A stretch of DNA of 61,797 bases, filler included, from Sanchytrium tribonematis (taxonomy: Eukaryota): NCBI GenBank assembly GCA_018985235.1. It is 7 parts of 7 records of this genome, joined end to end, with 100 filler letters (N's around TTAATTAATTAA, not from the genome) between each part and the next. Parts side by side here need not be neighbours in the genome. Positions count along the whole stretch, not along the records: positions 17,787 to 26,549 come from JADGIG010000361.1; positions 26,650 to 35,398 come from JADGIG010000362.1; positions 35,499 to 44,205 come from JADGIG010000363.1; 4 more parts are not named here. One strand, given 5' to 3'. The translations under genes were made by a program, and so were the position numbers. Shown in pieces: positions 18,808-43,059 of this stretch. A model generated the notes under the pieces. It was not told the origin of the DNA. It saw only the letters and a program-made list of their open reading frames with translations, and did no database searches. Position 1 is the stretch's first letter. Each line of letters begins with the position of its first letter.

Positions 18808-19477
18808 TTATTGCACAATCATGCGACTTGTAAGCCCAGCAGACATTGGACGATTATTGGTTTTTAAGTGAACCAAAATACTTTCGATTGATGGCATATC
18901 CTGCCGAGTATTGGGTGTTGAACTTGGAGTAGGAATCTCCATTTGAAGTGGTGGTGATTTTAATGGGGGCATTTGGATGTTAATCATATTGTTTGGTGCC
19001 AGTGGTACTAACTTTGGCCGATGCGTGATGGTCATAGGTGGGGATATTGGAGGTGAAAATGACAAAGTTGAAATATTTGGATTATTATGTATCAACTTTT
19101 GATGTTTGATCATATCACTTTTTCTTTTGAAATGACGCCCGCATATTTCGCAATTAAAAGGTTCGTATGGTATGTGAACATGAATATGTGATATAATATC
19201 ATATCGCTAAATAAAAATTTTATACCTTTGGAAAACTAGCCGAACAATCCTCCCAATAACAACGAAGGTTTACAGTCCCATTTCTTTTTCGACCTATATG
19301 CTGCTCTTTGACATGCTCAAACAATTCTTTAGTTGTTGTGTAATTATTTTTACAAGCCTTCCAACAACATTTAATTTTAGTGGCTTGACATAAATTCTCC
19401 GAATTAGAGCTGGTGGTTAATCCATTGTCACTATCAGCTTGCAATAGCTCTTCAATATTAAGTCTATTATATTCCAT
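18808..19477 (-). CDS. pacC: PacC/Rim101-like three-C2H2 zinc-finger transcription factor; exons 19477-19226 and 19206-18808
   Basis: CCWKAC...HVKEQHIGRK...NLRCYWEDC...FPK|RYDIISHIHVH...CEICGRHFKRKSDMIKH after splicing; short (216 aa). Confidence 0.8.
19207..19225 (-). other. 19-nt intron GTATAAAATTTTTATTTAG
   Basis: Removal restores zinc finger 2 and the frame of finger 3. Confidence 0.92.
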
Positions 19478-19697
19478 ATAACTAGAAATTGGATGTTTTG
19501 AAATATTTGAAAATCTTTCTGAGCGTGACGAAATAGGCCAATCAAATTGGAGTCACGTTTATCGAAGCCTTTCTTATGGTTGATAGTCACAAAATGGGAT
19601 CGCAGCATGTGAAGCGCCAATTGAGTTTCCAAACAGTGATTTAAATTTTGGGTAATGCATCTCCAAGAAAGGCTCGTAACTTCCCCTTAAAATTTGA

Positions 19698-20219
19698 ATG
19701 AATGTAGCATGTTGTCCAAAATCCAAATTCAACCATTTTGTCGAATTGATCGATTACGAGCTTATCTCAAATTATACCAGGGAGGAATTAAATTATCACC
19801 TTATCAAGCTAATTGCAAAAGAAAATCATTTGAAAATTATTGGGGAGTGTCCAACTGAAATATTAAATTTCGCCGAGAGATATGAAAATATTAATATAGA
19901 GATAGAATCATTTGAGTTTCCATTATCACAGAGTCTAAAAAGATATATTCTCAATTTTAATGGAGTTTTCACAAGAGATCAATTTAAAGAATGGTTTAAA
20001 GATCGTGACTGGGCAAGAATGTTTAACAATGTTATTTTCCATGAATTTGCCGTACCTTGCTCGACAGGGTACGTAAAAAATCCGTTTAAGTATACTGAAC
20101 CTCCCACTGCCCAAGATTTATATGAACTGGGATTCAAAATACTAAAGGAAGACATGAATCAATCAGAAAAGCCTATTGTTACCCAAGATTCTTCCTCTGA
20201 AGATTGGATGTCAGAATAG
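19698..20219 (+). CDS. Hypothetical protein
   Basis: 173-aa ORF with CCCC upstream of the ATG. Confidence 0.55.
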   Translation: MNVACCPKSKFNHFVELIDYELISNYTREELNYHLIKLIAKENHLKIIGECPTEILNFAERYENINIEIESFEFPLSQSLKRYILNFNGVFTRDQFKEWFKDRDWARMFNNVIFHEFAVPCSTGYVKNPFKYTEPPTAQDLYELGFKILKEDMNQSEKPIVTQDSSSEDWMSE

Positions 20220-20239
20220 TAAATATCGAATCTATTTAT

Positions 20240-21521
20240 TTAGTCAATGACTACAGGTGGCAAATTTTCATCAGCAACAGATTCGTGTTTCCCGCTCTTT
20301 AACTCTAATTCTTTCAGTGATTTCTTTCTTTCCTCCAAAAGTGTTTTTCTAGCTTTCTCCATAAATTTATCTAGCGCTTTGTAATTAAATTCATCTTCAG
20401 CATAAGATCGGTGCTCGTTCTCATTTACATGCTAAATCAAATAAATATACCTTGATAAAATCCTTAAACCTTTCACCACACAGCTCACAATAACCTTCTT
20501 TTGTGGCGATGTTATGATATTTACGGGAAACACCAATCGCAAGCTCATCTTCGTTAAAAACTGAATCTTCAGAATCTTCTTCAGACAATATACGACCCAC
20601 AGATGAAACATCAAGATCTACTTCGCTACTGCTTACAATAACCTCTTCTTTTGCAGCCAGAATACTCTGGGAGGGTGTCAGTAAACTATCATTTAGTTTT
20701 TGAGAAATTATTTCTCTTGATAAGGATGTCCTGTCACTGTTTTTCATAACTGGAAGACTTTTTCTCGAATGAATGCTAGCAGCAATTGATTTTACTCTAG
20801 TATATCCCGACTCGTTGTCATCAAACGCCTTCTCTGAAACCGATGAAGGCTCAATAAATGGAGTCTGTTTACTAGTTGAATGAAATTTTGTTAAAGTGTG
20901 AGGTGACTGTGATTCATTCTCATTTAGCTTGTGGTATATTTTGGAGATTATTGGTTTATACGTTCCTGTATTTTCACAAACATACGCATAGTAGTACTTA
21001 TTCGTGATGGACTTCCATCTTCCATCAGTCTTTGACTTTTTATATTTAGAATTATCATCAAATGTCAATGAATGGCTACGTTTAAGAGCTTGATTATCTT
21101 TGTCAAGTTTTAAAAATCGAATCCATCGGTGGACTTTTTCTGCTTTCCATACTCTTTTTTCATTAATAGCAACCGAATGCAAAATTTTCATCCCTGATTC
21201 TGTCAAAATATTGTCATTTGGTATGTCCATCCAATATTCAAGACCCTCTTCGCAATAATTTTTGTGAATTTCGTACCACGAAAATACCTCGTCTGGCACT
21301 ACAACGTGAGTTACATCTTGGTTATAAAAAGTAGCCATTTGGCCACCTAATTTCTGTAGTTGAAATCTTACTTCAGTGACTCTCCCAAGAACATAAAATT
21401 TGCCTTCAAAGAATGGGTTTGTGAAGGAATGACCTTTAACTGTGAATTGAGGCTTTTCAAGCAGTTTAATAGGATTAGTTTTGTAAATGTAAGTGGAGGA
21501 TTCACTTGTTGAGGAAGACAT
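20240..21521 (-). CDS. DBF4: Dbf4/Dfp1 (Cdc7 kinase regulatory subunit); exons 21521-20451 and 20431-20240
   Basis: Motif N (LQKLGG...VTHVVV), motif M, motif C GYCELC..FIK|HVNENEHRSYA after splicing. Confidence 0.85.
20432..20450 (-). other. 19-nt intron GTATATTTATTTGATTTAG
   Basis: Removal supplies the two His ligands of the Dbf4 zinc finger. Confidence 0.92.
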
Positions 21522-21676
21522 GCCAAGGGGTTTGTTAGAAATATAATGCTTCGCGCAACATTTACTTTTAGATAAATATTACTAGTTATTAAATTGGATC
21601 AGGTGTAGTTGCTTCTACTTTTTAATGGTGCAAAATCTTGTCACTTAATTTAATCGTTAAATTTAATCTTGCCCCT

Positions 21677-22090
21677 ATGTTTAAATTGTTCAAAAGACTC
21701 AATAGTAGAGATTTGGAGCCCTTGCAGAAAATGCAAGAATTACTAGATAAGGATGGAACAAAATACGCTGTTTTACAGCTTAAAGGCAGAGAATATAAAG
21801 TTCAAGAGAAAGACATATTGATTCTAAATAGATTAAAGAAAGACAATTCAACTGTACCTCTAGGAAGCAAAATCAATCTAGATCTTATTAAGGAAGTCGG
21901 TACCCAGAATTTCTATGTCCAGGGCCAACCATTCATAAAAGATGCTTCTGTTGTTGCAACCGTCATGGAACACAAACTTTCTCATAAATATGTAATTGAA
22001 AAATTCAAAAGAAGAAAAAGATATTCAAAAAAGATTGGACACCGACAACCACTCAGTTTGCTCCGTATTAATGAAATAAAGTGGCCTTGA
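21677..22090 (+). CDS. Mitochondrial ribosomal protein bL21m
   Basis: YAVLQLKGREYKV...KFKRRKRYSKKIGHRQ. Confidence 0.92.
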   Translation: MFKLFKRLNSRDLEPLQKMQELLDKDGTKYAVLQLKGREYKVQEKDILILNRLKKDNSTVPLGSKINLDLIKEVGTQNFYVQGQPFIKDASVVATVMEHKLSHKYVIEKFKRRKRYSKKIGHRQPLSLLRINEIKWP

Positions 22091-22099
22091 TAAAATTTA

Positions 22100-22901
22100 T
22101 TAGTTTGTCACCATCATCTTTTTAATTTTGGCAATGTTTTCTCCAGGGTTTAAGCCCTTAGGGCATGTCTTGGCACAATTCTAAATGAGAAATTAATACC
22201 ATAATCGTGTGACATCTAAACACTTTAAATGGACCTTCAAGTTCATGCAAACGCTCCTCTCTCTTACTATCTCTACTATCTATGATCCACCTATATGCTT
22301 GCATAAGGGCAGCTGGACCCATATAAACGTCACTATTCCACCAATACGATGGACAACCAGTACTACAACAAGCACATAAAATGCATTCATAAAGTCCATC
22401 TAATAACTTGCGATCTTCAGGAGATTGAAGATATTCTCTAGCTTCCCCATTTACCATATGCTGTGGTTTGTCCTCGCCAGCTTGTAAATATGGCTTTATA
22501 CTTGAATAGTGCTTATAGAATTGATTTAAGTCTGGTACTAAATCTTTAATTACGGGCATGTGTGGTAGAGGATATATTTTAACTTCAGTTTCCGGCATTT
22601 TGCATAAACAAGCCAAAGTATTTACCCCGTTGATGTTCATCGCGCAACTTCCACAGATACCTTCTCTACAGCTCCTTCTATAAGTTAAAGTCGAGTCCAT
22701 GTCAGACTTGATTCTTTGTAGTGCGTCCAAAACCATGGGACAATCTGAGATATCCACTTCGTACTTCTGGAGAAATGGTTTCTCATCCTTTTCAGGATTG
22801 TATCTGTAAATTTGAAATGTTCTAGTCTTAGAGTTTTTAACCATTGTCTTTGCCGCAGTTGACAATTGGCTTTGTAGTCTGATTAAAGTAGAAGAAAACA
22901 T
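22100..22901 (-). CDS. SDH2: Succinate dehydrogenase iron-sulfur subunit; exons 22901-22200 and 22180-22100
   Basis: [52 protein letters not shown] after splicing. Confidence 0.98.
22181..22199 (-). other. 19-nt intron GTATTAATTTCTCATTTAG
   Basis: Removal restores the conserved [17 protein letters not shown] cluster motif. Confidence 0.96.
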
Positions 22902-22949
22902 AATCGGGGCTGTGTTACAGAACTTTTTCAGATCCAGATTTTCACAAAA

Positions 22950-23399
22950 ATGACATCTAGAGTTTCAATCTTGAGAGATCCTACGAACAAGTGGCCCTTT
23001 AGATTAGGAGCTGCAGGGCTTATACCATTTTATATCGGGGCATTAGGTTGCGTTTTAGCAAAAGATGAAAAAACTGCTACAACATGGAAGACTTGGAATA
23101 CAAAATATGGTGCGACGATTCTTTCTTTTATTGGAGCAGTCCACTGGGGTGCTGCTCTCAATAGCACTTCTACGATAAGATCACGACAGTTTGTTTTTTC
23201 GGTATTACCAGCTCTTGGCGGATTTGGATCGCTGCTTCTTGGGCAGCCATTAGCAATATGGTCTCAAAGTCTTATGTTTGCGACTATCCCCATATTTGAG
23301 CATAAATATCTGCCCACAACACCATGGTATATGAGGTTGCGAATTGTGTTATCGGGTGGTGCTTTTATTGCTCAATCAATATGCGGAATGATCAAATAA
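22950..23399 (+). CDS. TMEM69/DUF3429 membrane protein
   Basis: [31 protein letters not shown]. Confidence 0.88.
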
Positions 23400-23454
23400 A
23401 TTCAATTGAGCCTGTCTCAGAATTATCGTAAATTATTCAAAACAACCTCTTGTT

Positions 23455-23772
23455 TTATTTACTGATTATGTTAGCGAAGACCTTATCGCAAAAATTTCCC
23501 ATATCAACATCCTTTGAACTACAACCCTGACAATCATGTGTTGTCCATGTAACTTGTACCTTGTTGTAAACATTAAACCATTCGGGATGGTGTTGCTTGT
23601 CTTCTGCAACGTCTGCAATCTCTGTCATAAATTTGAATGCTTCCTTAAAGTTATCAAAAATGTATTCTTTTGCGATAGCATCCCTAGAAGGCATTGTATC
23701 TTTCCATCCATTGCTTATAAGCGGTGCCAAGGATACTGTTCTATTAGACAATTTTGTCGGAATCGAGGACAT
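23455..23772 (-). CDS. PCBD1: Pterin-4-alpha-carbinolamine dehydratase
   Basis: HHPEWFNVYNKV..TTHD. Confidence 0.95.
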   Translation of the reverse strand: MSSIPTKLSNRTVSLAPLISNGWKDTMPSRDAIAKEYIFDNFKEAFKFMTEIADVAEDKQHHPEWFNVYNKVQVTWTTHDCQGCSSKDVDMGNFCDKVFANIISK

Positions 23773-23815
23773 GAATTGAGAGGGGAAGTTTCTTTACAAA
23801 ATATTCAAGTATTGA

Positions 23816-25834
23816 ATGACAATTGCGCCAATAAAAATTAGGGCCCATCGTGCTGTCGTAACTAGTGAAGATTTTCTGGAACTCGAGACTGCATTTAAAT
23901 TAATTGTAAATGGTGAAAAGTCTTCTCTAAGTTTTCAAAAACTTTACAGAATTTGTTGGAATGCTGTTCTAAATAATCAAGCGGACATTGTTTATGAAAT
24001 GCAAAAAACCATTATAATCGACAAAATGGATGAATTTAAATCAAAATCGAAGACTTTCGAAGGGATTTTGGATACGTGGAATGAAGCTAAAATATTTCTT
24101 AAATGTTTCCACGATGTCACACTCTATTTGCACAAAAACTATGTTAATCGCAAGAAGCTACTAAATATAGTTAATTTTGGCTACAACCAATATGCCCAAA
24201 TAGTCATAATGTATAATGAAACAAATTTTCATAATCTTTACAGAGCATCAATTCTTAAATTTTTAAATGGCGAGAATGACGAAGAGCAGCTGGCTAAAAT
24301 CTTTGAAGTTTTGACATTATGCCACTATAATAACGAGCCTTTTTTTGAATACTTTAAGGAGATCGTGACTCAAACATTTACCTCATTTCTCAAAAATATT
24401 GACGATAAATGTGGATTTGAATATTTTGGATCTTTGGAGGGGTTTTTAAATCGGCTAGAGTCTCAATCAAGCAAGTTTTTAGGTCAGGACTATTTAAAGC
24501 TGTTAATTGTTGAACTTGGTACTAATCTTATCTCAAATATGTCCACAAAATTAGATTTTATAATCTCGGATGACAATGCTAACAAGATATCGGTGATCTA
24601 TACTTTTGCTACTTATTCTACAGAGTTGCAATTAAAATTTTCTGACGTTTTGATATCAAAATTTGACCATTTTTTGCAATTGGAGATTCCAAACACAAGG
24701 AAAGAATGTCTTTTGAGATATTGTGAGCAAATATTGGACTTGCACAAGATTTCCGCAGTAATTTTAAAAAGTTGCAGAAATGATGTTTTAATAGATTCTA
24801 AATTATTTAAAATCTTTTCTAAGAAATTATCGGCTCAGGAAAATTCTTGTGTTGCTATCAATGCGTATTTGAATGAAATTATATCCGGGAAACTGGAGAA
24901 ATCAATCGATGATGCTCTTGTTTTATTTAAATTATACCCCGAAAAAGATTATTTCAATTCCTGTTATACTGAACTTTTGAGCAAAAGGCTGTTGTCATTA
25001 AGATCTCCAAATTTTGAGCTAGAAATGCTTGTTGTTACTAACTTCAAAACAATTTGTGGATCTTCCTATGTTTTCAAAATGGAAAGTATGATTCAAGATA
25101 TAATTGTGTCGAATGAAATGCTTTTGTCTAATCAATGTAAAGATGCATCTCCTAGAGTGCTGACCTTAGCTTCTTGGCCATATGACAGTAAAGATCAAAT
25201 GCCAGCTCGCTTGAGAAGCCAATTGAGTGACTTCGAATGCTTTTATTCTGAAAAATATCCTAATAGGAAATTGCACTGGGATATTACTTTGGGTGTTTCC
25301 ATTTTAAAAGCTACTTTTGATAAAGAGTATGAATTTCAGCTCTCATCGCTTCAAATGGCAATTCTAATGCTTTTCAATGAGAAGCCCATGTGGAATTTTT
25401 CTGAGTTATCTCGTGAAGTGTGTGTTCCTTCAGAAGAACTGGGGCTTCACATATTGCCATTATGTATGTCTAAAACCCAAATTTTAATCAAGAACCCATT
25501 AAAAAAGTTATGCTTGGATGATGATACTTATGAGATTAATGTCAATTTCTCGCACCCTGCTTTTAGAATTAAAATTCAAGTCTTGCCCAGTCAGTCTCAA
25601 CAAAAAGTTGCAGAAGAAGATCGAACTTTTCAGGTTGAAGCTGTCATTATTCGCCTTATGAAAACTCACAAGCTGTTGGAACACAATTCTCTGATTTCAC
25701 AAATTATCGAAAATTTGGAACCTATTTTTAATCCTGATATTTCGATGATAAAAATGTGCATAGGGCAATTGATTGAAAGAGACTTTATAAAACGCCAAGA
25801 GAGCAATAAGAATTTTTATGAATATGTAGCTTGA
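23816..25834 (+). CDS. Cullin (Cul3-like)
   Basis: LSFQKLYR, EKDYF..Y...LSKRLL, neddylation motif EAVIIRLMK, C-terminal YEYVA. Confidence 0.92.
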   Translation: MTIAPIKIRAHRAVVTSEDFLELETAFKLIVNGEKSSLSFQKLYRICWNAVLNNQADIVYEMQKTIIIDKMDEFKSKSKTFEGILDTWNEAKIFLKCFHDVTLYLHKNYVNRKKLLNIVNFGYNQYAQIVIMYNETNFHNLYRASILKFLNGENDEEQLAKIFEVLTLCHYNNEPFFEYFKEIVTQTFTSFLKNIDDKCGFEYFGSLEGFLNRLESQSSKFLGQDYLKLLIVELGTNLISNMSTKLDFIISDDNANKISVIYTFATYSTELQLKFSDVLISKFDHFLQLEIPNTRKECLLRYCEQILDLHKISAVILKSCRNDVLIDSKLFKIFSKKLSAQENSCVAINAYLNEIISGKLEKSIDDALVLFKLYPEKDYFNSCYTELLSKRLLSLRSPNFELEMLVVTNFKTICGSSYVFKMESMIQDIIVSNEMLLSNQCKDASPRVLTLASWPYDSKDQMPARLRSQLSDFECFYSEKYPNRKLHWDITLGVSILKATFDKEYEFQLSSLQMAILMLFNEKPMWNFSELSREVCVPSEELGLHILPLCMSKTQILIKNPLKKLCLDDDTYEINVNFSHPAFRIKIQVLPSQSQQKVAEEDRTFQVEAVIIRLMKTHKLLEHNSLISQIIENLEPIFNPDISMIKMCIGQLIERDFIKRQESNKNFYEYVA

Positions 25835-25842
25835 TTTATTTA

Positions 25843-26160
25843 TCATTTTTGACCCAAGGCTTCTAATAAATCTAATTTTGTAACTGTTAATAAATTTAGT
25901 AGCGTGTCAACCTTGAACTTTAATTCTTCATTTTCCCTTTGAAGAACATCCAATTTCTTTTTATCTATACCACTTCCTGGGATATTAGATTTATTATTTG
26001 TAGTTCCATTTACATTCCATACGCCATTTTCATAAACTAGTTCATTTCCTTGAAGCGTAAGGTGAATAGGATACTGGGTGTCTTCAGCATATGGAGATTT
26101 AGGTGCGCCTCCTTCGCTGAAATGCCTACTTCTTCTTTTTATAGAATCCATGGAATACAT
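25843..26160 (-). CDS. CBY1: Chibby-family basal-body protein
   Basis: LTLQGNELVYENGVW and coiled coil LQRENEELKFKVDTLLNLL match the Chibby signature. Confidence 0.8.
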   Translation of the reverse strand: MYSMDSIKRRSRHFSEGGAPKSPYAEDTQYPIHLTLQGNELVYENGVWNVNGTTNNKSNIPGSGIDKKKLDVLQRENEELKFKVDTLLNLLTVTKLDLLEALGQK

Positions 26161-26549
26161 TTTTCGAGTTTTAACCTGTGGCTTGGCTGTATATCGTAAA
26201 TTTTGATCTAGATAGAATCGAAGTTCTTTTATTTATTTCCAATTACAGCTCTATAAGCTATGTGAATTTACTAGGTTGGAATTTTCTAGTTCTAGTATTA
26301 AATTTTTTGAGGGTTGTCACCCAAAATTCGGAGAGCATGTTATACTTTTTTAATATTGTAAGAGCAACTCAAGGGTTTTGATTCCATTTCTTACAAATTT
26401 ACTTTTTAAAGTCTACTTTCAGTCAACATAACAACATTTTGAAACAAATTTATTTTAATGGTCAACGAATATCAAAAGGCACCCAAAGAACTCATTTTGC
26501 AACTGAAGACTTTATACATTCATAAAAAATTTATCCAGCTTAATAAGGT

Positions 26550-26649
26550 NNNNNNNNNNNNNNNNNNNNNNNNNNNNNNNNNNNNNNNNNNNNTTAATTA
26601 ATTAANNNNNNNNNNNNNNNNNNNNNNNNNNNNNNNNNNNNNNNNNNNN
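26550..26649. other. Artificial contig spacer
   Basis: N44-TTAATTAATTAA-N44. Confidence 0.99.
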
Positions 26650-27615
26650 CAATAAATGCTGCAATTCTCGTGCAAAATTCAAGTTCAAGCTGTGTTTAAT
26701 CAGAAACGATAAAGAAGGGTATTCAGAATAATCAAGTTGTACTTGATGGATGCACTTTTCAATGCACTTTGTATACTCCGTTTTAGTCTTTGGTGCGCTA
26801 TTTTCATTTTCAATTTTGGTAAATTCTCCATTAAATGCAATTGTGAATTCTCCAACAAACTCAGTATAATCAGATCGAGGGAAGTTGATGGACTTGAGTA
26901 AATAATAAAGCGGATCTTTAATTTCATCTTGATTTACAAAATGGTACGAATCATCAACAAAAGTCTCTAAAACACCTGAGAGAACTTCCTTGACAGTGCT
27001 ATTTGGCCCATAATAAAAGTAATACCTTAAAACAAAAGCTTGAGACCAATTAATAAACACAGGTTCTTTCCAGGGATTACCACTAGTAAGAGCTTGTAAA
27101 AAGGATGCCACATCATTCTTATTGGCAATAAAAATTTGCTGGTTATATTCTTGAACTTCAGTTGAAGCATTAAATGCACTTGAAATGGCAATCGCCAAAT
27201 GATAATTTTGATGGTCCAATAATGTTTGACAGCCTTCTTCGATCTTACCACAGCATATCAAATAAAGGCACCGATGATATGGGTCGTCTGTATCAATATT
27301 TAATAAATGGTTATAATCACAAAGGCACTCTACCAAATCGTGATGTTGAATCATTTTGTTATTCAAGTCTATATCCTTGACAATACTCAAAAGTCTCAAA
27401 AGATAGTGTGACTTCTGGTCGTATACACAATCATAAAGATTCTCAAGAGGGATATGCAATAATTTTGGTAATTCGCCCAATTTCAAAGATGGAATTAAAG
27501 GCATAAATGATTTTTGTAAATAGTGAGGCTCTATAAATGGTATTTCTTTGGTTAAAGCCGATATGCTTTCTACTTTCTTGACAGGTGTATCTAGCATTGG
27601 AGTTTGCAATCTCAT
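26650..27615 (-). CDS. NUP96: Nup96-like nucleoporin as a stand-alone ORF, 3' truncated
   Basis: GKIEEGC...NYHLAIAIS, NWSQAFVLRYYF, KDPLYYLLK resemble the Nup96 domain. Confidence 0.65.
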
Positions 27616-27793
27616 TTTATTTGTTTTCAGGAGAAAACGTCGATGAAATTAAAAGCTTGTTGGAGTTCCATGTAAATTAAATTTATTTAGATTAGAATCG
27701 GAATGCAAGTAAACAAATTTAACGCCTCAAATTAAAGTTAAACATTTAAATTAGATATTTGCCAATTTATGAAATCTCCTTGTTACTTTGCCG

Positions 27794-30865: not shown

Positions 30866-33367
30866 TTACAAATGATCTAACTGATAAACCCACACCCCAT
30901 TTTCGTAAGAAACATATCTTTGAATATTCAAATTTTTAAGTTTTAATTCATACTTTTTGTACAATTCATGCTCTGTGTCTCTGATTTCCTTTTTAGTTTG
31001 CCTATCTCTTGGCCAAATGCTTTCCATAGTTACAAGAATAGGCACATTAAGTCCAGAGCCTTCTTCAGGAGTGTAATCGTCTTCAGGATATACGATAATT
31101 TCTCTATCCTTAATTTGGATCAGCTCATTGAATATTTTCGTTAAAAGTTCAGATAAACGAAGACCTGAGTATTCATCTTCATATTTATCGCTTACTGGAT
31201 TCATCAAGTCTACAGGCTTTGTAAAATTGATCATTCCAACTCCTGGTACTCTAATATTTAAATTTGGAACCTTATAATTTGGAGCTTTGGCCATATTTTC
31301 TGCAATCTCTTGAATAGGAGGTGTGATTATCAAGTTCTCCGGTAACTTAATTTTTGGATCTTCAATTGGAAAAGAGGACTTTGGATGTGTAATTGGGCTT
31401 TCAGGTTCTACATTTTTCTTTGTAGATGCCATGGGTTTAGTAGGAGTCTGCATATCCACACTTTCTATCAACTTCAATTTTGATTTTGCTTCAGGAGTTA
31501 AATGCAAAGCTTTGGGGCTCGATTTGAACATGTCCATCGTAACATTCAAATTGTTAGATAATTTTGCATCTTCTGAGACTGAATGTGGATCTTGCATCCG
31601 TTTTTGAGGGCTAAAAATGACAGTAGATTTGTAGCGACTACTGACTTGTGGTTGTCTTTTGATGCTTGCTGGTAATCGTTCACTCTTCTTTTCTCTTCTG
31701 AGATTTGGAGACTGCTTTATTGGGGTATCTAATAAAGGACTATTCCCATATGGCATTTGGTCGACTCTGGCAACAAGTTTATTATCTGGAGTGACAGGAT
31801 TTTGTTGGTTTTGAGGTTGAAAAGAAGTCGGCTGACTTGGTTGCCCAAGACTAAAAGCTGGTTTTTGGGTGTTGAAGCCGCCAAATGATGGCTGCGTTGT
31901 TGGTACATTAAATGATGTAGTTGGCTGAGTGGTAGCAGTTGTGTTATTCGTTCCGAATTGTAGTTTAGGTGGTTGATTTGGAGTTGAAAATGTATTTGTA
32001 TTAGATTGTCCAAAGCTAGGTGTTGGTGTTCCAAATGTGGGCTTATTCAAAGAATTGTTAAAAGCGTTGGATTGAAATCCAGAGGTAGCTGCTGGTTGTG
32101 TTTGACCAAAAGTGGACGTTCCAGTTCCAAAGCTGGGTGCTGTAGTAGTTTGGCCAAAACCGGAAGTATTTCCAAGAGTCGTGGAGGGCTGGTTGAAAGA
32201 AGAGTTCGTTCCAAATCCCGATTGTTGAGGTTGTTGTCCAAATCCAGTTGTAGTATTAGAAGTCGCACCTTGACCAAATCCTGGAGTAGAAAAAGTGTTG
32301 GTTGCTGTTTGACCAAATGCAGGTTTTTGACCAAATGCAGAGGTTGTATTACTGGTTCCAAAACCAGTTGTAGTGTTGGTATTCGAAGTAGAACCAAAAC
32401 CACCAAAACTGGGTGCAGTGCTTTGAAATGTATTTGTATTGGTAGGAGCTCCAAATGTTGATGGTTGATTGAAAGAGCTTGTATTTGTTTGCCCAAAGCC
32501 CGTTGTTGTAGAAGGGTTTGTAAAACCACCAAAACCGGTGGCGGATGGACCTGATTTCTTATTTAATTGATAATCTTTGACTCTGAGTTCCTCCAAAGAG
32601 AAATTCTCATATTGCTTGTCTGCAGTGATAGTTTGATAATACCCATCGCTGGTAGAAGTGGGGTTCCAATTCGGCTTAGTGCCTTCATTTATACCCATTC
32701 CACCAGTATTGAACCCTCCAAACGAAGGTTGGGTATTTTGCCCCAGTGTTCCGCCAAAAGACGGCTTAGCAGCTCCGAACCCACCAAAACCACCGGTGTT
32801 AGCTTGGCCGAAGCCAGTATTTGATGTAGAACCAAAACCGGTAGTGTTAGTTTGACCAAATCCTGCAGTAGAGCTTTGGCCAAAACCGGTGGTAGTTGGC
32901 TGACCAAAGCCACTGGTGTTGTTTTGACCAAATCCAGAAGTGGTAGTCGAACCGAAGCCAGTGGTCGAAGGTTGGCCAAATCCACTTGTCGTCTGACCAA
33001 ATCCGGTATTAGAAGGTTGACCAAAAGTATTGTTTCCACCAAATCCTGTATTTTGCTGAGGTTGTCCAAAAGTAGATGTTGTAGACCCAAATCCGCCAGT
33101 TTGTGCAGGTTGCCCAAATGTGCTTGTGCCTCCAAAACCTGTCGTTGCAGGTCTACCAAATGCACTGTTCGTCGAGCCAAACCCTGAAGTTTGTGGCTGG
33201 CCAAATCCTCCTGGTTGCTGCTGAGTTTGTCCAAATGTACTGTTGCCAAAAGTAGATTGGCCAAAAGCTGACTGAGTTGGCCTTTGCTGTCCAAATCCTG
33301 TATTGTTAGACCCAAAAGTATTCGAAGCTGGTCTATTGTTGTTGTTATTAAATGAAAATGAACTCAT
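30866..33367 (-). CDS. NUP98: Nup98-like FG nucleoporin (FG repeats, GLEBS, autoprotease domain)
   Basis: Dense GFG/FG repeats, YQTITADKQYENFSLEELRVKDY, IVYPED...GSGLNVP...GVWVYQLDHL-stop. Confidence 0.93.
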   Translation of the reverse strand: MSSFSFNNNNNRPASNTFGSNNTGFGQQRPTQSAFGQSTFGNSTFGQTQQQPGGFGQPQTSGFGSTNSAFGRPATTGFGGTSTFGQPAQTGGFGSTTSTFGQPQQNTGFGGNNTFGQPSNTGFGQTTSGFGQPSTTGFGSTTTSGFGQNNTSGFGQPTTTGFGQSSTAGFGQTNTTGFGSTSNTGFGQANTGGFGGFGAAKPSFGGTLGQNTQPSFGGFNTGGMGINEGTKPNWNPTSTSDGYYQTITADKQYENFSLEELRVKDYQLNKKSGPSATGFGGFTNPSTTTGFGQTNTSSFNQPSTFGAPTNTNTFQSTAPSFGGFGSTSNTNTTTGFGTSNTTSAFGQKPAFGQTATNTFSTPGFGQGATSNTTTGFGQQPQQSGFGTNSSFNQPSTTLGNTSGFGQTTTAPSFGTGTSTFGQTQPAATSGFQSNAFNNSLNKPTFGTPTPSFGQSNTNTFSTPNQPPKLQFGTNNTTATTQPTTSFNVPTTQPSFGGFNTQKPAFSLGQPSQPTSFQPQNQQNPVTPDNKLVARVDQMPYGNSPLLDTPIKQSPNLRREKKSERLPASIKRQPQVSSRYKSTVIFSPQKRMQDPHSVSEDAKLSNNLNVTMDMFKSSPKALHLTPEAKSKLKLIESVDMQTPTKPMASTKKNVEPESPITHPKSSFPIEDPKIKLPENLIITPPIQEIAENMAKAPNYKVPNLNIRVPGVGMINFTKPVDLMNPVSDKYEDEYSGLRLSELLTKIFNELIQIKDREIIVYPEDDYTPEEGSGLNVPILVTMESIWPRDRQTKKEIRDTEHELYKKYELKLKNLNIQRYVSYENGVWVYQLDHL

Positions 33368-33701
33368 ATAAATGCAAGATTGTAAACAAGGAGCAAGCCC
33401 AAAAATTATAAGTTTTAGAAATGAAAATCAATCAAAGGATTAAGGATGTTTACTAATTTACTACATAATTCTTTCCCCCAAAAGTAAAAGATTTCTCTTG
33501 ATATTTGTTTTATGTTGTGAATCAAATGTGACTGGACTTTCTGGTGTCTTCAATATGTTTCGCAAGATATAAGTTCCTCAAATTTATAAATTTCATTTAG
33601 TCGCCATTGGTTTGTGACATCGAATGAATTCATGTTCATGGCAATTGTGTCAATATTTATTTTTGAGAAAAGTTTATTTTAAGGAGTAGTTGCGAAATCA
33701 A

Positions 33702-35398: not shown

Positions 35399-35498
35399 NN
35401 NNNNNNNNNNNNNNNNNNNNNNNNNNNNNNNNNNNNNNNNNNTTAATTAATTAANNNNNNNNNNNNNNNNNNNNNNNNNNNNNNNNNNNNNNNNNNNN
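35399..35498. other. Artificial contig spacer
   Basis: N44-TTAATTAATTAA-N44. Confidence 0.99.
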
Positions 35499-35990
35499 GG
35501 CTATTCTTAGGTACATTTATATAACATAGGTTTTCAAGGGCAAGATCCTAGTACAGATTTTAGAGGCATGGGTGAGCTCGCACTTGAGCAGTTGCACTTT
35601 TTTGTGACAATGCGGACTGAAGATGCCAAAACTATGCTGACTGCGTCTCATCATCCAATTTACTGGTTTAGTATGGCTTTGGTGTGCATTAATGTCTCTT
35701 CATTTGTCGTTGAACTACTTAATACCCGCAGACTACATCCTTATATGTATATCAGTTATTTGGAATTATGCAGACCACCTGGCAAAAACCGAAACTGTTT
35801 AAGTTATAAAGATCTTCTTCCGATAAAATATATTCATTTATTTTATTGCCAAATATGTATGGAATTTGTTGAGAGATGGCAATTAAATAATACCACAGTA
35901 ATTCAGTTTGAAATGTTTTTTAAAGAATTCAAGATCAAAATTGAACAAGAGTTGATACTGTCATATATGAAATATTTAATAAAGACTTGA
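35499..35990 (+). CDS. ELMO-domain (ELMOD) protein, C-terminal part
   Basis: After splicing: (W)LFLG|FQGQDPSTDFRGMGELAL; YWFSMALVCINVS. Confidence 0.88.
35511..35529 (+). other. 19-nt intron GTACATTTATATAACATAG
   Basis: Removal restores the WxxLGFQGxDPxTDFRG ELMO motif (phase 1); the upstream exon is only 12 nt before the contig edge. Confidence 0.8.
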
Positions 35991-35997
35991 ATTAAAT

Positions 35998-37737
35998 TTA
36001 TTGATGTTCATCCCCAGATGAATCATCCATATTGTTTATGCTTTGAGATCTAAAAATGGTATTCATTCCAACAGGAAATCCTCTTGGAACATAAAAATCT
36101 AAAACGATTATTTCTGAACGTTGATTTCTTGACAGCGCGACCACTAAATGCCTGTCAGTCAACTTTACCCTCCAAACATTCGTTACACCTGTAATAATAT
36201 CCCTGATGAATTCTCCAGTTTGAATATTGAACAATTTTACATGTCCATCGCATCCAACAACTAAAAAATGGGTATTGTGGGCCATACAGGTTACAGCAGA
36301 TAAATTAAGCTCTACTTGATGTAGAATAGGAAATGGAACATTCGTAGCTTGCGAATCACTTTGGCTCCAGGAATTGCCAAACATCGCATTTTGAACCGAA
36401 TGCCTATATATTGAATCTGGCAAATACCGATTATTTATCGGCGTTGCTTTAAACGGAGTTAGCCCATACATTCCATATACCTTTCTGGACTTGTTGCTTT
36501 GTGCCAGTTTTTCTTGAATAGCTAGAAAATCTCGTGGAAAAACTGTCACAGAGGAATCAGCGCTAGCGCTGACAACATATCTGTTTGATTTGTCAATAAT
36601 GCCTACCAATGATCTGTTATGATCAAGGGTGTAGAGGCATTGACCCGTTTTAATTTCCCACACACGAATAGAATTGTCTAAAGAGCCTGTCCAAACAAAT
36701 TTGTCGTCACAAACTACAGCGTAAACCTTGTCTTGATGTCCAACAAGCTCTTGGAGGCATTTTCCTTTATAGTCCCATATCCTTGCTGATCGATCGTAAC
36801 TGGCAGAGACAATATGCTTCGATGTACATGATAAGCTCCTCACAGAATCGTTATGCCCTTCCAATGTATATAAACAATGATAGTCATTGGATGATATCTG
36901 TGGTGATGTGCTCGGGGATGAAAAATGGTGCTGGTTGGGCATAGCAGAGGCCAAGTCACTTCGCCTGCGGGAAACATTGGTTCTAGAAACTGTAATGGCA
37001 TCCGGAGTGGACTCTGATGAACTTCCTTGCATGTCTTCCTCAGCCTCGTGAGAGTTTTGCAAATTTGATTTGCTCTCCTCAACAATTTTTGATAGATCCC
37101 ACATTTTGATATTTTTGTCTCTGCTTCCACTTACTAATATCCACTTGTAATCAACTATATTTACGCTAAGACATCGAATAGTTCCAGCGTGACCAGTCAA
37201 AACTGATAGATATTGTCCTTTGCTTAAATCTACTACATGTATATTTCTATCTGTGCTTCCTAAACATAATATGTTTTCAATTGCAGCTAGTGCCCAAATT
37301 CCACCGCCAAAGCGATTAAATTGATGCAAAAGCGAGTTTTTCTCCGTTACAGGATCCTTCAAAGAGCTCATTTTATAGACTTGTACGATAGGCTCGTCAA
37401 ACGTAGCTATGAGACCCTGAATTTCCACTTGCTCGTGAATCCATCGATGAACTAAAGTATTTGTTACGACCGCTGCCGGACAATTTAGCGAACTCGTGCT
37501 ATACTGACCATTACTGGTGGTATGATAAATGTAAAATAATTTTATATATTCTTCTTTATAATTAAGGATTGATGTAACATCGAAATCTCGTGCCAATAAT
37601 TCTTTCCAAATTCTACTATGGTTAAATATTAGGTTGAAGCTCTTACAAACCCCTGAGCAATTTAGAATATCATGTATAGTCAAATAACGCGATACATATA
37701 TAAGAGAATCAAAATTAAATTCTGTCATAAATTTCAA
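35998..37737 (-). CDS. F-box/WD40 protein (Cdc4/Fbw7-like)
   Basis: N-terminal F-box, multiple GH...WD repeats. Confidence 0.9.
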   Translation of the reverse strand: MKFMTEFNFDSLIYVSRYLTIHDILNCSGVCKSFNLIFNHSRIWKELLARDFDVTSILNYKEEYIKLFYIYHTTSNGQYSTSSLNCPAAVVTNTLVHRWIHEQVEIQGLIATFDEPIVQVYKMSSLKDPVTEKNSLLHQFNRFGGGIWALAAIENILCLGSTDRNIHVVDLSKGQYLSVLTGHAGTIRCLSVNIVDYKWILVSGSRDKNIKMWDLSKIVEESKSNLQNSHEAEEDMQGSSSESTPDAITVSRTNVSRRRSDLASAMPNQHHFSSPSTSPQISSNDYHCLYTLEGHNDSVRSLSCTSKHIVSASYDRSARIWDYKGKCLQELVGHQDKVYAVVCDDKFVWTGSLDNSIRVWEIKTGQCLYTLDHNRSLVGIIDKSNRYVVSASADSSVTVFPRDFLAIQEKLAQSNKSRKVYGMYGLTPFKATPINNRYLPDSIYRHSVQNAMFGNSWSQSDSQATNVPFPILHQVELNLSAVTCMAHNTHFLVVGCDGHVKLFNIQTGEFIRDIITGVTNVWRVKLTDRHLVVALSRNQRSEIIVLDFYVPRGFPVGMNTIFRSQSINNMDDSSGDEHQ

Positions 37738-37771
37738 AATAAAACAAGGGGCTGGTATATAGTACCGCCAT

Positions 37772-39277
37772 TTATTTTACTGACTGATCTATTTGCGCCA
37801 ACATGTACAATAATTTCTCTTGGTAACCTTCCGAAAGATGCGAGTAATGAGTAACTGCAAGATTTTTAATCTCGCTCAACTGGATGATGTCTTGAAAAGG
37901 GAATAAAAGCAAAGCACCTAAAGCAGATACAAAAACTTTGGAATTGTTACATTTTATGGCACTTATCAGGGTATATGTTAAGTCTAAAAGTACGACTTCG
38001 CTATTTTTGACGAAAGGGTATAGTTTTTCGATGCATAAACACGCATTCCACCGTAGCTGAAAGGGACCACTTAGGGCTGCTTTGTTAAATATTGAAACGA
38101 ATGAAATGACTTCATCGTGTCCAATTTCAGCGGGTTGCAGTAAATAAAATAATCGCAACCCTCCAAGCCGGTGTTTTTCGTTACTTTTACATATCTTGAG
38201 TGACAAATTTAGTAATCTACTCTTTGCTACTCCAAATGATATGTTGGAAATAAATTTTGGAGTAAATGCGGAAACACAGGTAGATGCTAACAATTTAAGC
38301 GCAAATCCTTTCTCGCTGTTAAATATGTTTTCTATTAAAGTAAATAAAGTAAGAGAGTCATTTACATCAAGCTGGTTTTGAGTGACCAATTTGTTTGCAA
38401 TTTTCCAACCTTGCTTAATAGGATGTAGCTCCATTTTCGATTGAGATTTGAAAGTGGACCGATCCAATCTAGACTTGGAACTCAATAGTTCGTGCATTAA
38501 ATCGATCTGATATTTCAGGCATAAATTAGTGTATAGCAAAATAGAGGAAATAATGAGCCTGTTTTCGAATAAAAGTGAAGCATTAGCTAAGCAATTTTCT
38601 GCTTCTACTTCCGACTTTGATACAAATAACGAATGTAAAAGTTTTGTCCAATTTCCAAGTATGGGAATGAATTTGAATTTGAGAATTGTTGGTCCCACAT
38701 AACAATCCATGTAATAAGGATTTTCTTCGATCGACCGGAAGATACGCCCTTCCGTACTCCGGGGTAGATTAATTTCTTTATGAGAAATCAAGACAATGAT
38801 TGCTATTTCATTTAATTTATCTACATGAGTTCTGGCAACTTCACGCAAATAATCAGCGTCACTTGCTATGTGAGTGAGATATTTCGTGGAGATTATAAGT
38901 TGAGATATATAAAAATAATAGTATTGATGATCAAGAAATGGAGCATGGCAAATTTTTCGAAATATATCCATCCGGAGTTCTGATTTTGATATATAAGATT
39001 TGCCTTTTCTACCATTTGTATCAATTAAATTCCATAAATTTGAATCCTGAACTATATATCCCATACATTTGTAGTGATCTGGCGTGTCAAAGTCGTATAT
39101 CTTTAAGCACAGCTGGTCAAAATAGTCTGCAAACCAATTCTGATTAAATTGAGATAACATTGATATAATTACCATGTGTTCAGAATCGAGAATGTATGTT
39201 GAAATAAGCGACTCGCAAGCCTTTATGTATTCTAGCTTTGTTAGAGTCCCTGTGTCAATTTTTGTAATTAAATCCAT
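37772..39277 (-). CDS. HEAT/ARM-repeat protein (HEATR6-like)
   Basis: QLRWNAC and NSKVFVSALGAL motifs; helical character. Confidence 0.55.
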   Translation of the reverse strand: MDLITKIDTGTLTKLEYIKACESLISTYILDSEHMVIISMLSQFNQNWFADYFDQLCLKIYDFDTPDHYKCMGYIVQDSNLWNLIDTNGRKGKSYISKSELRMDIFRKICHAPFLDHQYYYFYISQLIISTKYLTHIASDADYLREVARTHVDKLNEIAIIVLISHKEINLPRSTEGRIFRSIEENPYYMDCYVGPTILKFKFIPILGNWTKLLHSLFVSKSEVEAENCLANASLLFENRLIISSILLYTNLCLKYQIDLMHELLSSKSRLDRSTFKSQSKMELHPIKQGWKIANKLVTQNQLDVNDSLTLFTLIENIFNSEKGFALKLLASTCVSAFTPKFISNISFGVAKSRLLNLSLKICKSNEKHRLGGLRLFYLLQPAEIGHDEVISFVSIFNKAALSGPFQLRWNACLCIEKLYPFVKNSEVVLLDLTYTLISAIKCNNSKVFVSALGALLLFPFQDIIQLSEIKNLAVTHYSHLSEGYQEKLLYMLAQIDQSVK

Positions 39278-39298
39278 TTTTGAAAATAGTTGGAAACG

Positions 39299-40618
39299 AT
39301 GGAGAGATTTTTTTTGAAAAACAAGTTGCTAGCATCGAAAGCGCAGCTATCTAAAATACTAACCATATACAACCAAGAAAATATTATGAATTTTATTGAT
39401 TTGTATTACGACTTGGGAGGAGAATCGGGTCACTTAAATGATGCTTTGATAGACAAGATTATTTCTCACGAGTCAAACGATTTTAAATTAATTGATTTGT
39501 ACAAAGTTTCGAGTTTTAACAGTAATGCCACTCGAAAAATTCAGTGTTTTAAGAAATATTTTGCTCGAATGAGGGATTTAATTCATGAACAAGGATTTAA
39601 AACACAATCAATTCGATCCCTTCTAAGCCGACCAGGAATAGAAGCTGATATTTGCGGCATACTTTATAATGGTCCTGGAGACATGGCATTTATTGAAGAC
39701 GACACTGGAGAACTGCGCTTGATTCCTCCATCTAATGACACTCTTATCGGGCAAGGTATATATTACGACTCTGTATTTGTCTTGATGAAAGGCTCATATT
39801 CAAAAGACGAAAAGCAGTTTCTGGTAACTCATGTTGCACAGCCACCATTTATTGAAGAACTCGACATTTTGAAAGAGAGGGAGGTTGTCTCAAGATCTCT
39901 AGAATCATCATATTGCCTCTTTTTCAATGACGTATACCTCGACGATGAAGATGTTCAAAATGATTTTGTGTTTGCCTTGACAAAATACCATGAGAGAAAT
40001 ATTCGCATTATTTCGATAACCATTTCAAATTGTTTTCGGACAGATCAGGCGGACCAACAGCGATCGGCTGTGATTCATTTTGTTCGCAGACTCGGAACAG
40101 AGTTGCCCAGTCTTTTGAGAGATGTGCGCTTTATATTTGTACCTCCAAAAGACACTATAATTCCTACAGCGAGATACTCTGATTATATTTTTGGTCCTGT
40201 TGCTAATTCTTTTGACCATTTTTTTTTGGGATCAAATCCATTCTTATTAGATTGTTTTGGCAGATCAGTAAGCTTTTTCACAGGTGATTTTATGAGTCAA
40301 AGGAGTTTACTAAATATATCAAGTTCGGCGTCAAAAAGCTACCAAGCAGCGTTGACAATTGTATCGCAGCTGCGGGTAGTATGCTATAAAGCTGAGAATA
40401 TTCTGTATAGTGAAGAGCTATATTTTAAAAAGCTTCCATCAATTATAGTAACACCAAGTAGTGCAAAATGGAATGAATTTATATTTAAATGCAAATCACC
40501 TCAATTGAGCAGTACAATTGTGAATAATTGTGGATCTTTTGCTAGTGAGAAAACTTGGACAGCGTATCTTCCTTTTGAGCATCGTACAGAATGTTGTCAA
40601 ATTCCTAAAAAAAAGTAA
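39299..40618 (+). CDS. DPB2: DNA polymerase epsilon subunit B
   Basis: IEDDTGEL, GIYYDSVFVLMKG, QPPF, DVYLDD, FIFVP, SNP, LPSIIV. Confidence 0.8.
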   Translation: MERFFLKNKLLASKAQLSKILTIYNQENIMNFIDLYYDLGGESGHLNDALIDKIISHESNDFKLIDLYKVSSFNSNATRKIQCFKKYFARMRDLIHEQGFKTQSIRSLLSRPGIEADICGILYNGPGDMAFIEDDTGELRLIPPSNDTLIGQGIYYDSVFVLMKGSYSKDEKQFLVTHVAQPPFIEELDILKEREVVSRSLESSYCLFFNDVYLDDEDVQNDFVFALTKYHERNIRIISITISNCFRTDQADQQRSAVIHFVRRLGTELPSLLRDVRFIFVPPKDTIIPTARYSDYIFGPVANSFDHFFLGSNPFLLDCFGRSVSFFTGDFMSQRSLLNISSSASKSYQAALTIVSQLRVVCYKAENILYSEELYFKKLPSIIVTPSSAKWNEFIFKCKSPQLSSTIVNNCGSFASEKTWTAYLPFEHRTECCQIPKKK

Positions 40619-40620
40619 AT

Positions 40621-41574
40621 TTATTTGCTATCAAGAGTTTGCTTTAACATTTTTAATAAACCCTCCTTAGTTTTATTCCCACCGGTGAAACCACTTGCAT
40701 GGACGAACGTTCCGCCTGGCACACCTGAAGCTTTGTCTAATTCTGATTCTCTTAAACCTCGCCACTTTTCAGGAAGAGATAGCCTATTTTCGAAAGATCC
40801 TTCTTTAATCGAGACGCAAGTGACTCTCCATGTATTTTTATCTGGGTAAACACAGAATAAAGGGCGTTGTTTGATTTTTTTCGTCTTCAAAAGTTCTTCT
40901 TCTAATTCGTATACGTGTGACTTCCATGGCACATATTCATCTAATATCATAATTCCATCCTTCATTTCCAATAAACATTTTGAGATAACTTCACGACTAG
41001 GAAGCCACGATATCCCATATACTTCAATGGTTCTCAGCAAAATATCTTTCATCCAAGACATGGCCTTTGAAAACCTTTCATCTTGCAAGTCCTCAGGTTC
41101 CACATAAGTCCCATTCATTGATCCAATGATTGAAGAAATAGATGTATTATCCTTATATTTTGGCGTTTCGTTAGATGAAAATCGATCTACGCCATTGTCG
41201 ATTCCATCAAATGCTTCAATAAATGAGGAGTACATTTTCTGGAATATCTTCTCAGTTTTTGGTGAATCAGTTTTTAATACCTTCTCAATTAATTGTTTCC
41301 CATAATGCTTATAAACAAGACCAGCAGAAGACAATCTAGTAGTATATGCGCTGCTAAATGTATCTTGAAAAGATCTTTGATGATGGTCATATCTTTTGAT
41401 TTTGTGATCGTAGACACCACCAACATCAACCACATAATCACAATCCTTAAGAACTGATTCATCACGAGTCCTAATAATCTGAACTCCATTCATAATGACA
41501 TTGAGCATCGCACATGCCAAGACCTCATCTGCGTGAAATGTGCCACTATGTGTGCCAACTTTGATCATGGTCAT
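40621..41574 (-). CDS. MYG1: MYG1 exonuclease
   Basis: GTHSGTFHADE, VVDVGG, YDHHQ, LSSAGLVYKHYG, FVHASGFTGG. Confidence 0.97.
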   Translation of the reverse strand: MTMIKVGTHSGTFHADEVLACAMLNVIMNGVQIIRTRDESVLKDCDYVVDVGGVYDHKIKRYDHHQRSFQDTFSSAYTTRLSSAGLVYKHYGKQLIEKVLKTDSPKTEKIFQKMYSSFIEAFDGIDNGVDRFSSNETPKYKDNTSISSIIGSMNGTYVEPEDLQDERFSKAMSWMKDILLRTIEVYGISWLPSREVISKCLLEMKDGIMILDEYVPWKSHVYELEEELLKTKKIKQRPLFCVYPDKNTWRVTCVSIKEGSFENRLSLPEKWRGLRESELDKASGVPGGTFVHASGFTGGNKTKEGLLKMLKQTLDSK

Positions 41575-41693
41575 TTCACGGAGTAGCGGGGTTGATCATT
41601 GGTTCCAAACCATAAATCAGGTTCGCCATTGCCTCATTTGTTCTACGCGTAATTAGGTAGGAGGTTTCAAAACAACTCAAGTTCATGAATCAC

Positions 41694-43059
41694 TTAATTT
41701 ACTTGTCTACTTGGAAATGGTCTTTCCATTCCGATTTGGGGACCACTAGTATAATATAACTTTGGTCGATAGTCTGGATTCTCTCGCATGACATTGCTGT
41801 TACGGAACTTTTCAATCAAAGCATCAAGGCCTTGCTCGTCAGCGTATTTGATTGAACAGACTTTTACACTATTGAATCTTGGCCATCGCTTTCCATCTAA
41901 TGCCACGGTCAATCTGTAAACTGCTTCCAAGTTCACCAAATTAATGAATGCATATCCAACATTACAGTGGTTCTAAATGAATTAGGATTACTCTAAAGTC
42001 GATTCTTAAATACAAGAAGTCGAATTGTCCGTCGACATATCTTCTAATCAACTCCAACAGCTCACTATGGCTGTATCGATTTGGGATATTTCGAATCATC
42101 AATGTTGTTCGAACGTCATTTCCAATTCTTAAGTTGTGAAAGTCAATATCATGAGTATTGCGCATACGTCGTTGCCCGGGGGGTTGCAATTGAGGAACAG
42201 GTGGGACCGGAAAGAAGGTTTGACTGAGTGGCATCAAACTTTGATCGATTTCTCGGACTCTTCTACTTGTTGTTGCATATCCGAGACCAGTATCGAATTG
42301 ACGTGGAAATCCGGCTGTTTGTTGTCTCCACATGTTTGAGTTGACTACTGTGTCTGGAAGCTCAGTTCCAACGTTTAAACTACTCAACGTAGAACTCATA
42401 TCTTCTTCAAAGGTACTACTTCTTGGTGAAAACATTCCAGATGAGTTGGATGGAGAGAGAGGTGGATGTCGAGGTGCTTCATTCTCCACCATTGCATTAG
42501 TCATGTGTAACTCTCCTGCATCTCTGATTGTCACCTTCAAGTCATGATCCTCATACATTTTCGTTAAACAGGCTAATGCTCTCATTTTGCCGGTAATGCA
42601 GAAAAAGGTCACTTTCAAGACTGATTGAGTCAACCACATGGCATTTTTGACTTCTCCGCAAGTACCATGCAAGTTGGTAATAATGCTTCGATCTAAAGTT
42701 TCAAAAGTCTTGCCTTGTAAGTATTGAACTAAAATGGTGGAGCTCAATCGAACATACAACTCATTGTCTTGAAATCGTCTTACAATTTCATGCAAAGACG
42801 CAAAACGTGCCACCACTGTTTGATGTTGCAATCCATTCAACACGCTCATTTGGCGAACGCAAGGTAATGCTTTCACAGCATCTCGACAATCTAAATAGCA
42901 CAAGACATAGTAATGGCGGTTTAAAAAAGAATAGTTGACATAGGCAATAGCTCCAAACAATTGAAACAAGTCTTGATGTTTCTCTTCAACAAGTATTACA
43001 TTCTCAACCAAAATGCAATGCATATTTTCAGAAGAATAAGTTAAGCTTTGTTGTTGCAT
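41694..43059 (-). CDS. mei2: Mei2-like RNA-binding protein; exons 43059-41992 and 41972-41694
   Basis: DVRTTLMIRNIPNRY, FDFLYLRIDFR|NHCNVGYAFINL, YADEQGLDALIEKFRNSNVM. Confidence 0.92.
41973..41991 (-). other. 19-nt intron GTAATCCTAATTCATTTAG
   Basis: Removal restores the Mei2 RRM3 motif IDFxNxCNVGYAFIN. Confidence 0.95.

Follow-up and report, generated by a model that had tools for sequence, protein, structure and literature searches.

Six 19-nt introns in a sanchytrid genome

The stretch of DNA analysed here (the window) comprises 61,797 nt of the Sanchytrium tribonematis assembly GCA_018985235.1, and consists of seven contigs of 8.7-8.8 kb each, at 32-37% GC, joined by spacers. Six of its genes are each interrupted by a 19-nt insert (Table 1), and all six inserts carry the motif T-N-A-Y close to their 3' end. 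In window order the contigs hold 1, 0, 3, 0, 2, 0 and 0 inserts, three contigs thus being intron-bearing. The best matches to the malate synthase and the succinate dehydrogenase iron-sulfur subunit (SdhB) of the window include EukProt proteins of Amoeboradix gromovi, and in trees of both proteins (17 of 120 malate synthase and 19 of 121 SdhB rows were used) the window groups with A. gromovi and metagenome proteins with a support of 100/99. Thus, judged by its proteins, the host is evidently a sanchytrid. The available part of the genome description presents Sanchytriomycota as a phylum of reduced algal parasites that is sister to Blastocladiomycota (PMC8371127).

The inserts were validated by protein continuity, independently of any motif within them. 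All six 19-mers are present exactly as listed in an initial annotation of the window; the range it assigned to them, 19207-41991, encloses five and leaves out the sixth, at 1416-1434. Excision of exactly 19 nt, a length of 3n+1, repairs the reading frame in every case, and GT...AG ends are found in 6/6; five introns are in phase 0 and one, in the ELMO gene, in phase 1. In the transposase gene the frame is restored over 160 residues, positions 1-62 of the PF13359 profile being matched in the upstream open reading frame (ORF) and 61-158 in the downstream one. Both exons of the zinc-finger gene, whose product we take to be PacC/Rim101-like, match C2H2 fingers; the insert sits in the second finger, where splicing yields the canonical C-X12-H spacing. 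Exon 2 of the Dbf4-like gene begins at position 19 of the zf-DBF profile, while the matches to yeast Dbf4 (residues 674-701, E 0.27) and of two 30-residue pieces to PDB entries are weak. A Dbf4 orthologue (P0269, 60% identity) departs at the same codon as the window intron; the representative search gave two matches, one of which stops at the intron site and does not extend far enough to reveal the 3' end of the intron. The spliced SdhB junction is identical to the Catenaria and Neoconidiobolus sequence. In the Mei2-like gene positions 1-40 of PF04059 (RRM_2) stop at the junction and 41-97 begin there; no clade relative was found among 27 matches of 39 candidates in a search with this region. 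Support is weakest for the ELMO intron, because the contig holds only 12 nt of its exon 1; here the unspliced frame is stopped by a TAG just upstream and PF04727 positions 50-173 are matched downstream. Taken on this protein evidence, the six inserts are almost certainly real spliceosomal introns.

Published models miss these introns. Those of the window's own SdhB (P0241) and Mei2 (P0242) are unspliced and read through the 19-nt insert. The SdhB model of A. gromovi is unspliced because the proteins of this species are, in the methods available, ORF calls made on genomic contigs by TransDecoder (PMC8371127), a program that models no introns.

Table 1. Introns and intron-bearing genes, with positions along the window
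Feature	Position	Strand	Remarks
19-nt intron, transposase	1416..1434	-	Phase 0; putative branch A at 1421; Harbinger/PIF-type DDE_Tnp_4
Two-exon transposase gene (start uncertain)	933..2304	-	DDE_Tnp_4 profile and ORFs
19-nt intron, C2H2 zinc-finger gene	19207..19225	-	Phase 0; in-frame TAA; putative branch A at 19212
Two-exon zinc-finger gene (stop-to-stop limits)	18808..19552	-	C2H2 matches in both exons
19-nt intron, Dbf4-like gene	20432..20450	-	Phase 0; inside Dbf4 zinc-finger motif; putative branch A at 20437
Two-exon Dbf4-like gene	20240..21521	-	zf-DBF profile
19-nt intron, SdhB	22181..22199	-	Phase 0; just before last cysteine motif; putative branch A at 22186
Two-exon SdhB gene	22100..22901	-	Homology and spliced junction
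19-nt intron, ELMO-domain gene	35511..35529	+	Phase 1; putative branch A at 35524
ELMO-domain gene, 5'-truncated at contig start	35499..35990	+	PF04727
19-nt intron, Mei2-like gene	41973..41991	-	Phase 0; in C-terminal RRM; putative branch A at 41978
Two-exon Mei2-like gene	41694..43059	-	RRM_2 profile

An internal motif in a single register

As the initial annotation had reported, T-N-A-Y occurs in all six introns with its A six nucleotides from the 3' end, hereafter A(-6), and the columns G1 T2 A3 T12 A14 Y15 T17 A18 G19 are invariant in 6/6; it should be stressed that G1, T2, A18 and G19 are true by the definition of a GT...AG intron. At +5 the base is always A or T and never G. The interiors are ~90% A+T, and the level expected by chance was estimated from 200,000 within-intron shuffles of positions 4-16 (or 3-17), a motif being counted wherever it fell. 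The frequency of an invariant A column was 1.4% in shuffles of positions 4-16 and 2.6% in those of positions 3-17 (p≈0.014-0.026), that of T-N-A in register 0.054% and 0.079%, respectively (p≈5e-4), and that of T-N-A-Y in register 0.011% and 0.006%. The signal is carried by A14 and the joint motif. Elsewhere in the window the motif is found in five of the 48 other, non-intron, AT-rich GT..AG 19-mers, and the consensus GTA-N-TNAYNYAG has 10 matches at 19 nt versus 0-5 at each other length between 15 and 30 nt. A(-6) is the sole T-N-A-Y register common to the six introns, two of which contain no alternative T-N-A-Y.

The introns do not resemble two other known types. U12-type introns have the 5' consensus RTATCCTT and the branch site CCTTRAY, and the extended 5' consensus is present in 0/6. 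Introner families consist of near-identical copies at recent positions; the six interiors differ, and the positions of the SdhB and Dbf4 introns are common to relatives at ~80% and ~60% protein identity, which argues against an introner origin.

The SdhB intron in relatives

Four SdhB proteins of the clade (P0121-P0124; 79-83% identity) are unspliced predictions that diverge at the same codon. Their introns were reconstructed by back-translation of the read-through residues, with GT, AG and a conserved downstream exon being required. Each protein gave a single length solution, 22, 19, 19 and 20 nt, respectively, and the window's own SdhB, used as a control, returned 19 nt. The downstream exon of the relatives is conserved in the shifted frame, only three of its codons being checkable in P0122. 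The residues leave no choice but A(-6), Y(-5) and T(-3) in three of the four relatives, among them the one with the 22-nt intron, and permit these bases in the 20-nt intron. Position 14 is C in the 22-nt intron, where the A lies at position 17 (equivalent to -6), and C or G in the 20-nt intron. Thus, the longer versions lack an A at position 14 yet keep A(-6), which indicates that the A, as far as these reconstructions go, is anchored to the 3' end and not to position 14. When metagenome contigs were scanned for a short intron at this site of SdhB, three loci (L001-L003) matched, none of which is a clade member or a real intron.

Proposed mechanism of splicing

We propose that the introns are likely U2-type, with a 5' site of little more than GTA, and that A(-6) is most probably the nucleotide at which they branch. 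The U-rich stretch would be bound first by BBP/SF1 and then by the GUAGUA of U2, leaving A(-6) bulged. Branching at this position would give a 14-nt lariat loop in the window introns, as initially suggested, and a 5-nt tail; because the A lies at position 17 in the 22-nt version, however, the loop would range from 14 to 17 nt across the clade rather than being fixed at 14. As the initial annotation held, there is no room for a polypyrimidine tract. Neither such a tract nor scanning would be needed for docking of the AG, which immediately follows the branch helix. Branch site plus acceptor would thus be recognized as a single 8-nt unit, the arrangement seen in Yarrowia, at near-Stentor intron size. 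U1 pairs with positions +1 to +3 and never with +5; canonical U2 pairs with both T(-8) and Y(-5) in 6/6. The initial annotation also held that the U1, U2 and U6 footprints must overlap or act in sequence. Base-paired U1 (+1 to +6) and the U2 helix (approximately positions 9-15) need not overlap, however, and can sit side by side as RNA. Any crowding would therefore be between proteins, where a clash is plausible, and, as the exchange of U1 for U6 is sequential in the canonical pathway, sequential action would not be special to these introns.

The A. gromovi annotation lists Prp8, Brr2, SF3B1, BBP, both U2AF subunits and U1-70K, together with Prp5, Prp22, Cwc22, Cwc25 and Isy1. Slu7, Prp18, U1C and Yju2 were not found with the KO/KOG numbers and terms tried in its annotation sheet, which has 3,755 rows and covers only about half of the proteome. 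According to the accessible text of PMC3392075, the second step of yeast splicing dispenses with Slu7, Prp18 and Prp22 when the branch-to-3' distance is below 7 nt, which fits the 5-nt tail proposed here. Cyanidioschyzon merolae is, however, described as being without Slu7 despite long branch-to-3' distances in the part available of PMC10158995; for this reason, and because the annotation is partial, the absence of these four factors is weak evidence.

Several observations weigh against branching at A(-6). An invariant T column arose in 30% (positions 4-16) or 32% (positions 3-17) of the shuffles, so that T12 alone is at chance level; T(-8) is likewise allowed in all four relatives and forced in none. 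A second T-N-A-Y lies farther 5', at -10, -11 or -13, in four of the six introns. Pairing to canonical U2 is weak (three to four of six positions, often G-U), and a search of the window against Rfam (E≤1) returned no match and thus no small nuclear RNA. A 20-nt GT..AAG segment on the minus strand at 55419..55438, with T(-8), A(-6) and G(-5), would bridge two transposase-like (DUF7869) ORFs; that a decayed element has suffered a deletion here is at least as likely an explanation as an intron. The sample comprises only six introns, and as these are equal in length, anchoring to the 5' end and to the 3' end cannot be told apart within the window. The introns of the four relatives are known only as degenerate back-translations and are orthologues of a single intron, and therefore demonstrate conservation rather than four independent cases.

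It could be argued that the introns are real but that A(-6) is mainly part of an extended 3' splice-site motif, recognized for example by U2AF or Prp8, with branching at any available A. Such a motif would be expected to move with the 3' end, as it does in the relatives; the additional T-N-A-Y copies in four introns would provide other branch points, and tiny myxobolid introns have, in the portion available of PMC13644364, no more than weak stretches of A, which shift in position as length changes. This explanation is unlikely, however, as the motif is the canonical U-N-A-Y core in the register documented for Yarrowia, and the alternative As would give loops of 7-10 nt that are out of register, with two introns offering no second T-N-A-Y at all. 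Less probable still is that AT richness and a small sample produced the internal motif, the introns being defined by GTA, TAG and length alone, as reported for the Bigelowiella nucleomorph. The composition of the interiors and the frequency of invariant T columns are in keeping with this proposal, as are the 18-21-nt nucleomorph introns, for which no obvious branch motif is reported in the accessible text of PMC6461891. It does not account for the rarity in the shuffles of an invariant A column and of T-N-A in register, or for the retention of A(-6) in relatives whose intron interiors otherwise differ. That the inserts are not spliceosomal, but pseudogene lesions, assembly errors, segments excised at the DNA level or sites of translational bypass, is very hard to credit: the unspliced public models of SdhB and Mei2, the lack of a spliced clade SdhB among the 120 matches listed and the genuine frameshifts without GT..AG elsewhere in the window would be in its favour, but length and GT..AG ends are identical in 6/6, the SdhB break is common to five genomes with the downstream exon conserved, the A. 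gromovi proteins come from a program without an intron model, that species has annotated core spliceosome genes, and the inserts show essentially no folding. Branching at A(-6) in U2-type introns thus remains the preferred reading.

Comparison with other tiny or 3'-anchored introns

The comparisons made here follow the accessible portions of the sources cited. Stentor introns are 15-16 nt long and have a 5-nt tail, the branch A, there too deduced from sequence, being nucleotide 10 or 11; no strong branch consensus is reported in the available text (PMC9505925). The sanchytrid introns resemble those of Stentor and other heterotrichs in the GUA start, AU richness, near-fixed length, putative A(-6), 5-nt tail and low number of introns per gene. 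They differ in length, 19 nt (19-22 nt in the clade) against 15-16 nt with a loop of 10-11 nt, in the additional invariance of T(-8) and Y(-5), and in their host, which is a fungus. The initial annotation saw convergence on the ciliate geometry in this likeness. The register does match that of Stentor, but it is not ciliate-specific, because the TACTAAC|AC|AG of the yeast Yarrowia lipolytica also places the branch A at -6. The introns of Y. lipolytica are long (median 204 nt) with strong ACTAAC and GTGAGT signals, and both reduced and intron-poor species are described as retaining strong signals (Irimia & Roy 2008, PMC2483917).

A fixed distance between branch and AG, with no pyrimidine tract, is a feature of Yarrowia, Trichomonas and Giardia (PMC2483917) and of Entamoeba (bioRxiv 10.1101/2022.06.08.495308), and is shared, for the putative branch A, by the sanchytrid introns, in which A(-6) is present in 6/6 and forced in three of the four relatives; Yarrowia, itself a fungus, has the identical T(-8)/A(-6) register. 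Unlike in Yarrowia, the putative sanchytrid branch motif is cut to T-N-A-Y and the donor to GTA. The strong WCTRAY and strong 5' site of this class are absent, with C(-9) in 1/6, a purine at -7 in 3/6 and +5G in 0/6. Chlorarachniophyte nucleomorph introns (18-21 nt) are similar in size class, GT(A)...AG ends and AT richness, but number ~3 per kb of coding sequence and have no obvious branch motif in the text available, whereas the sanchytrid introns number ~0.1 per kb of DNA and have a position-fixed motif (PMC6461891). The 16-17-nt introns of mikrocytids also occur in a parasite, with uniform tiny length, conserved sequence and few intron-bearing genes; these organisms are rhizarian, their introns are shorter and their spliceosome contains only 17-19 proteins (PMC10245619). 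Encephalitozoon cuniculi and myxobolids provide examples of short introns in opisthokont parasites, and the myxobolid donor is also reduced to GTa. In E. cuniculi, however, the median length is 32 nt and GTAAGT and CTAAYTT are strong (PMC2483917), and in myxobolids the medians are 22-27 nt and weak As shift away from the AG as length grows (PMC13644364).

No description of sanchytrid spliceosomal introns was found in the openly accessible literature searched, including part of the supplement of the genome paper (PMC8371127); where full text on sanchytrids was searched, the word 'intron' came up solely in the title of a reference, and broader searches yielded no sanchytrid paper. Apparently, therefore, the 19-22-nt sanchytrid introns with a 3'-anchored putative branch point are undescribed; each ingredient is known, but no publication found reports them together in an intron-poor fungus. 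At 19 nt the inserts would rank among the shortest fungal introns. With them, a fungal lineage joins the few eukaryotes whose introns fall below ~20 nt, and their length is less than that typical of any opisthokont compared in this non-exhaustive survey. The variation in length from 19 to 22 nt with A(-6) fixed provides a natural test of whether the distance from 5' site to branch or that from branch to AG is the hard limit. The last cysteine motif of SdhB is missing from unspliced public proteins of sanchytrids such as P0122 and P0241, and splice-aware re-annotation could alter gene counts and some presence/absence calls. A bolder proposal, which we regard as rather doubtful, is that roughly a thousand 19-22-nt introns have been overlooked throughout the phylum, and that its spliceosome reads branch and acceptor as one 8-nt element with no +5G contact and no second-step factors Slu7 and Prp18. 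Were this so, the spliceosome could not, for physical reasons, go below a branch A at -6, a limit that Stentor, Yarrowia and sanchytrids would each have reached independently, and annotation would be the cause of some of the gene losses or truncations that sanchytrids seem to show.

Intron density and other features of the window

No further homology-supported intron was found by a motif-free scan of ORF 3' ends (84 ORFs) and a GTA/YAG scan of 5' ends, scans that could miss stop-free 3n introns and introns in lineage-specific genes; malate synthase contains no intron-sized insertion relative to five homologues. The density is thus at least ~1 intron per 10 kb. Scaled to the 10.5-11.2 Mb given for sanchytrid genomes in the available text of PMC8371127, this corresponds to roughly 1,000 introns per genome (about 400-2,400).

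Three consensus 19-mers on the minus strand were rejected, one (52514..52532) because it lies within an open kinase frame and two (6259..6277 and 56381..56399) because they join no long ORFs. An AT-rich full-consensus 19-mer at 27672..27690 (+) lies between the divergent starts of a Nup96-like gene and malate synthase, ~100 nt upstream of the latter, and could be a 5' untranslated-region intron or mere promoter DNA. Frame breaks with no matching GT..AG occur in a DUF6625 gene (16302-16400, -), a kinase-Sel1 gene (57098-57173, +, ~50 residues missing), a small cysteine-rich gene (9744-9921, -) and a Helitron remnant (7077-8731, +). Those in the DUF6625, kinase and Helitron sequences were rejected as introns because they look like indels, a deletion or a stop, and the breaks of this kind appear to be pseudogenes or assembly errors.

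The intron of the Harbinger/PIF-type transposase fits the 19-nt geometry of its host exactly; the element would thus be either long resident in the host or one whose intron shrank alongside those of the host. In one relative, the longest contig listed is 9,385 nt for SdhB (P0123) as well as for Dbf4 (P0271), a hint that the SdhB-Dbf4 neighbourhood (20240-22901 in the window) is conserved there. Nup98 and Nup96 form a single polyprotein in most fungi. Here the Nup96-like gene (26650-27648, -) and the Nup98 gene (30866-33427, -) occupy separate ORFs of the same contig, malate synthase and a further ORF lying in between, and Nup98 stops just past its autopeptidase domain. Chibby is a basal-body protein, and a Chibby-family gene (25843-26232, -) is kept in this lineage, whose flagellum is described as reduced and non-motile. 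Two paralogous ORFs that belong to no known family (14566-15768 and 17162-17686, both +) share a long identical peptide and flank the DUF6625 gene.

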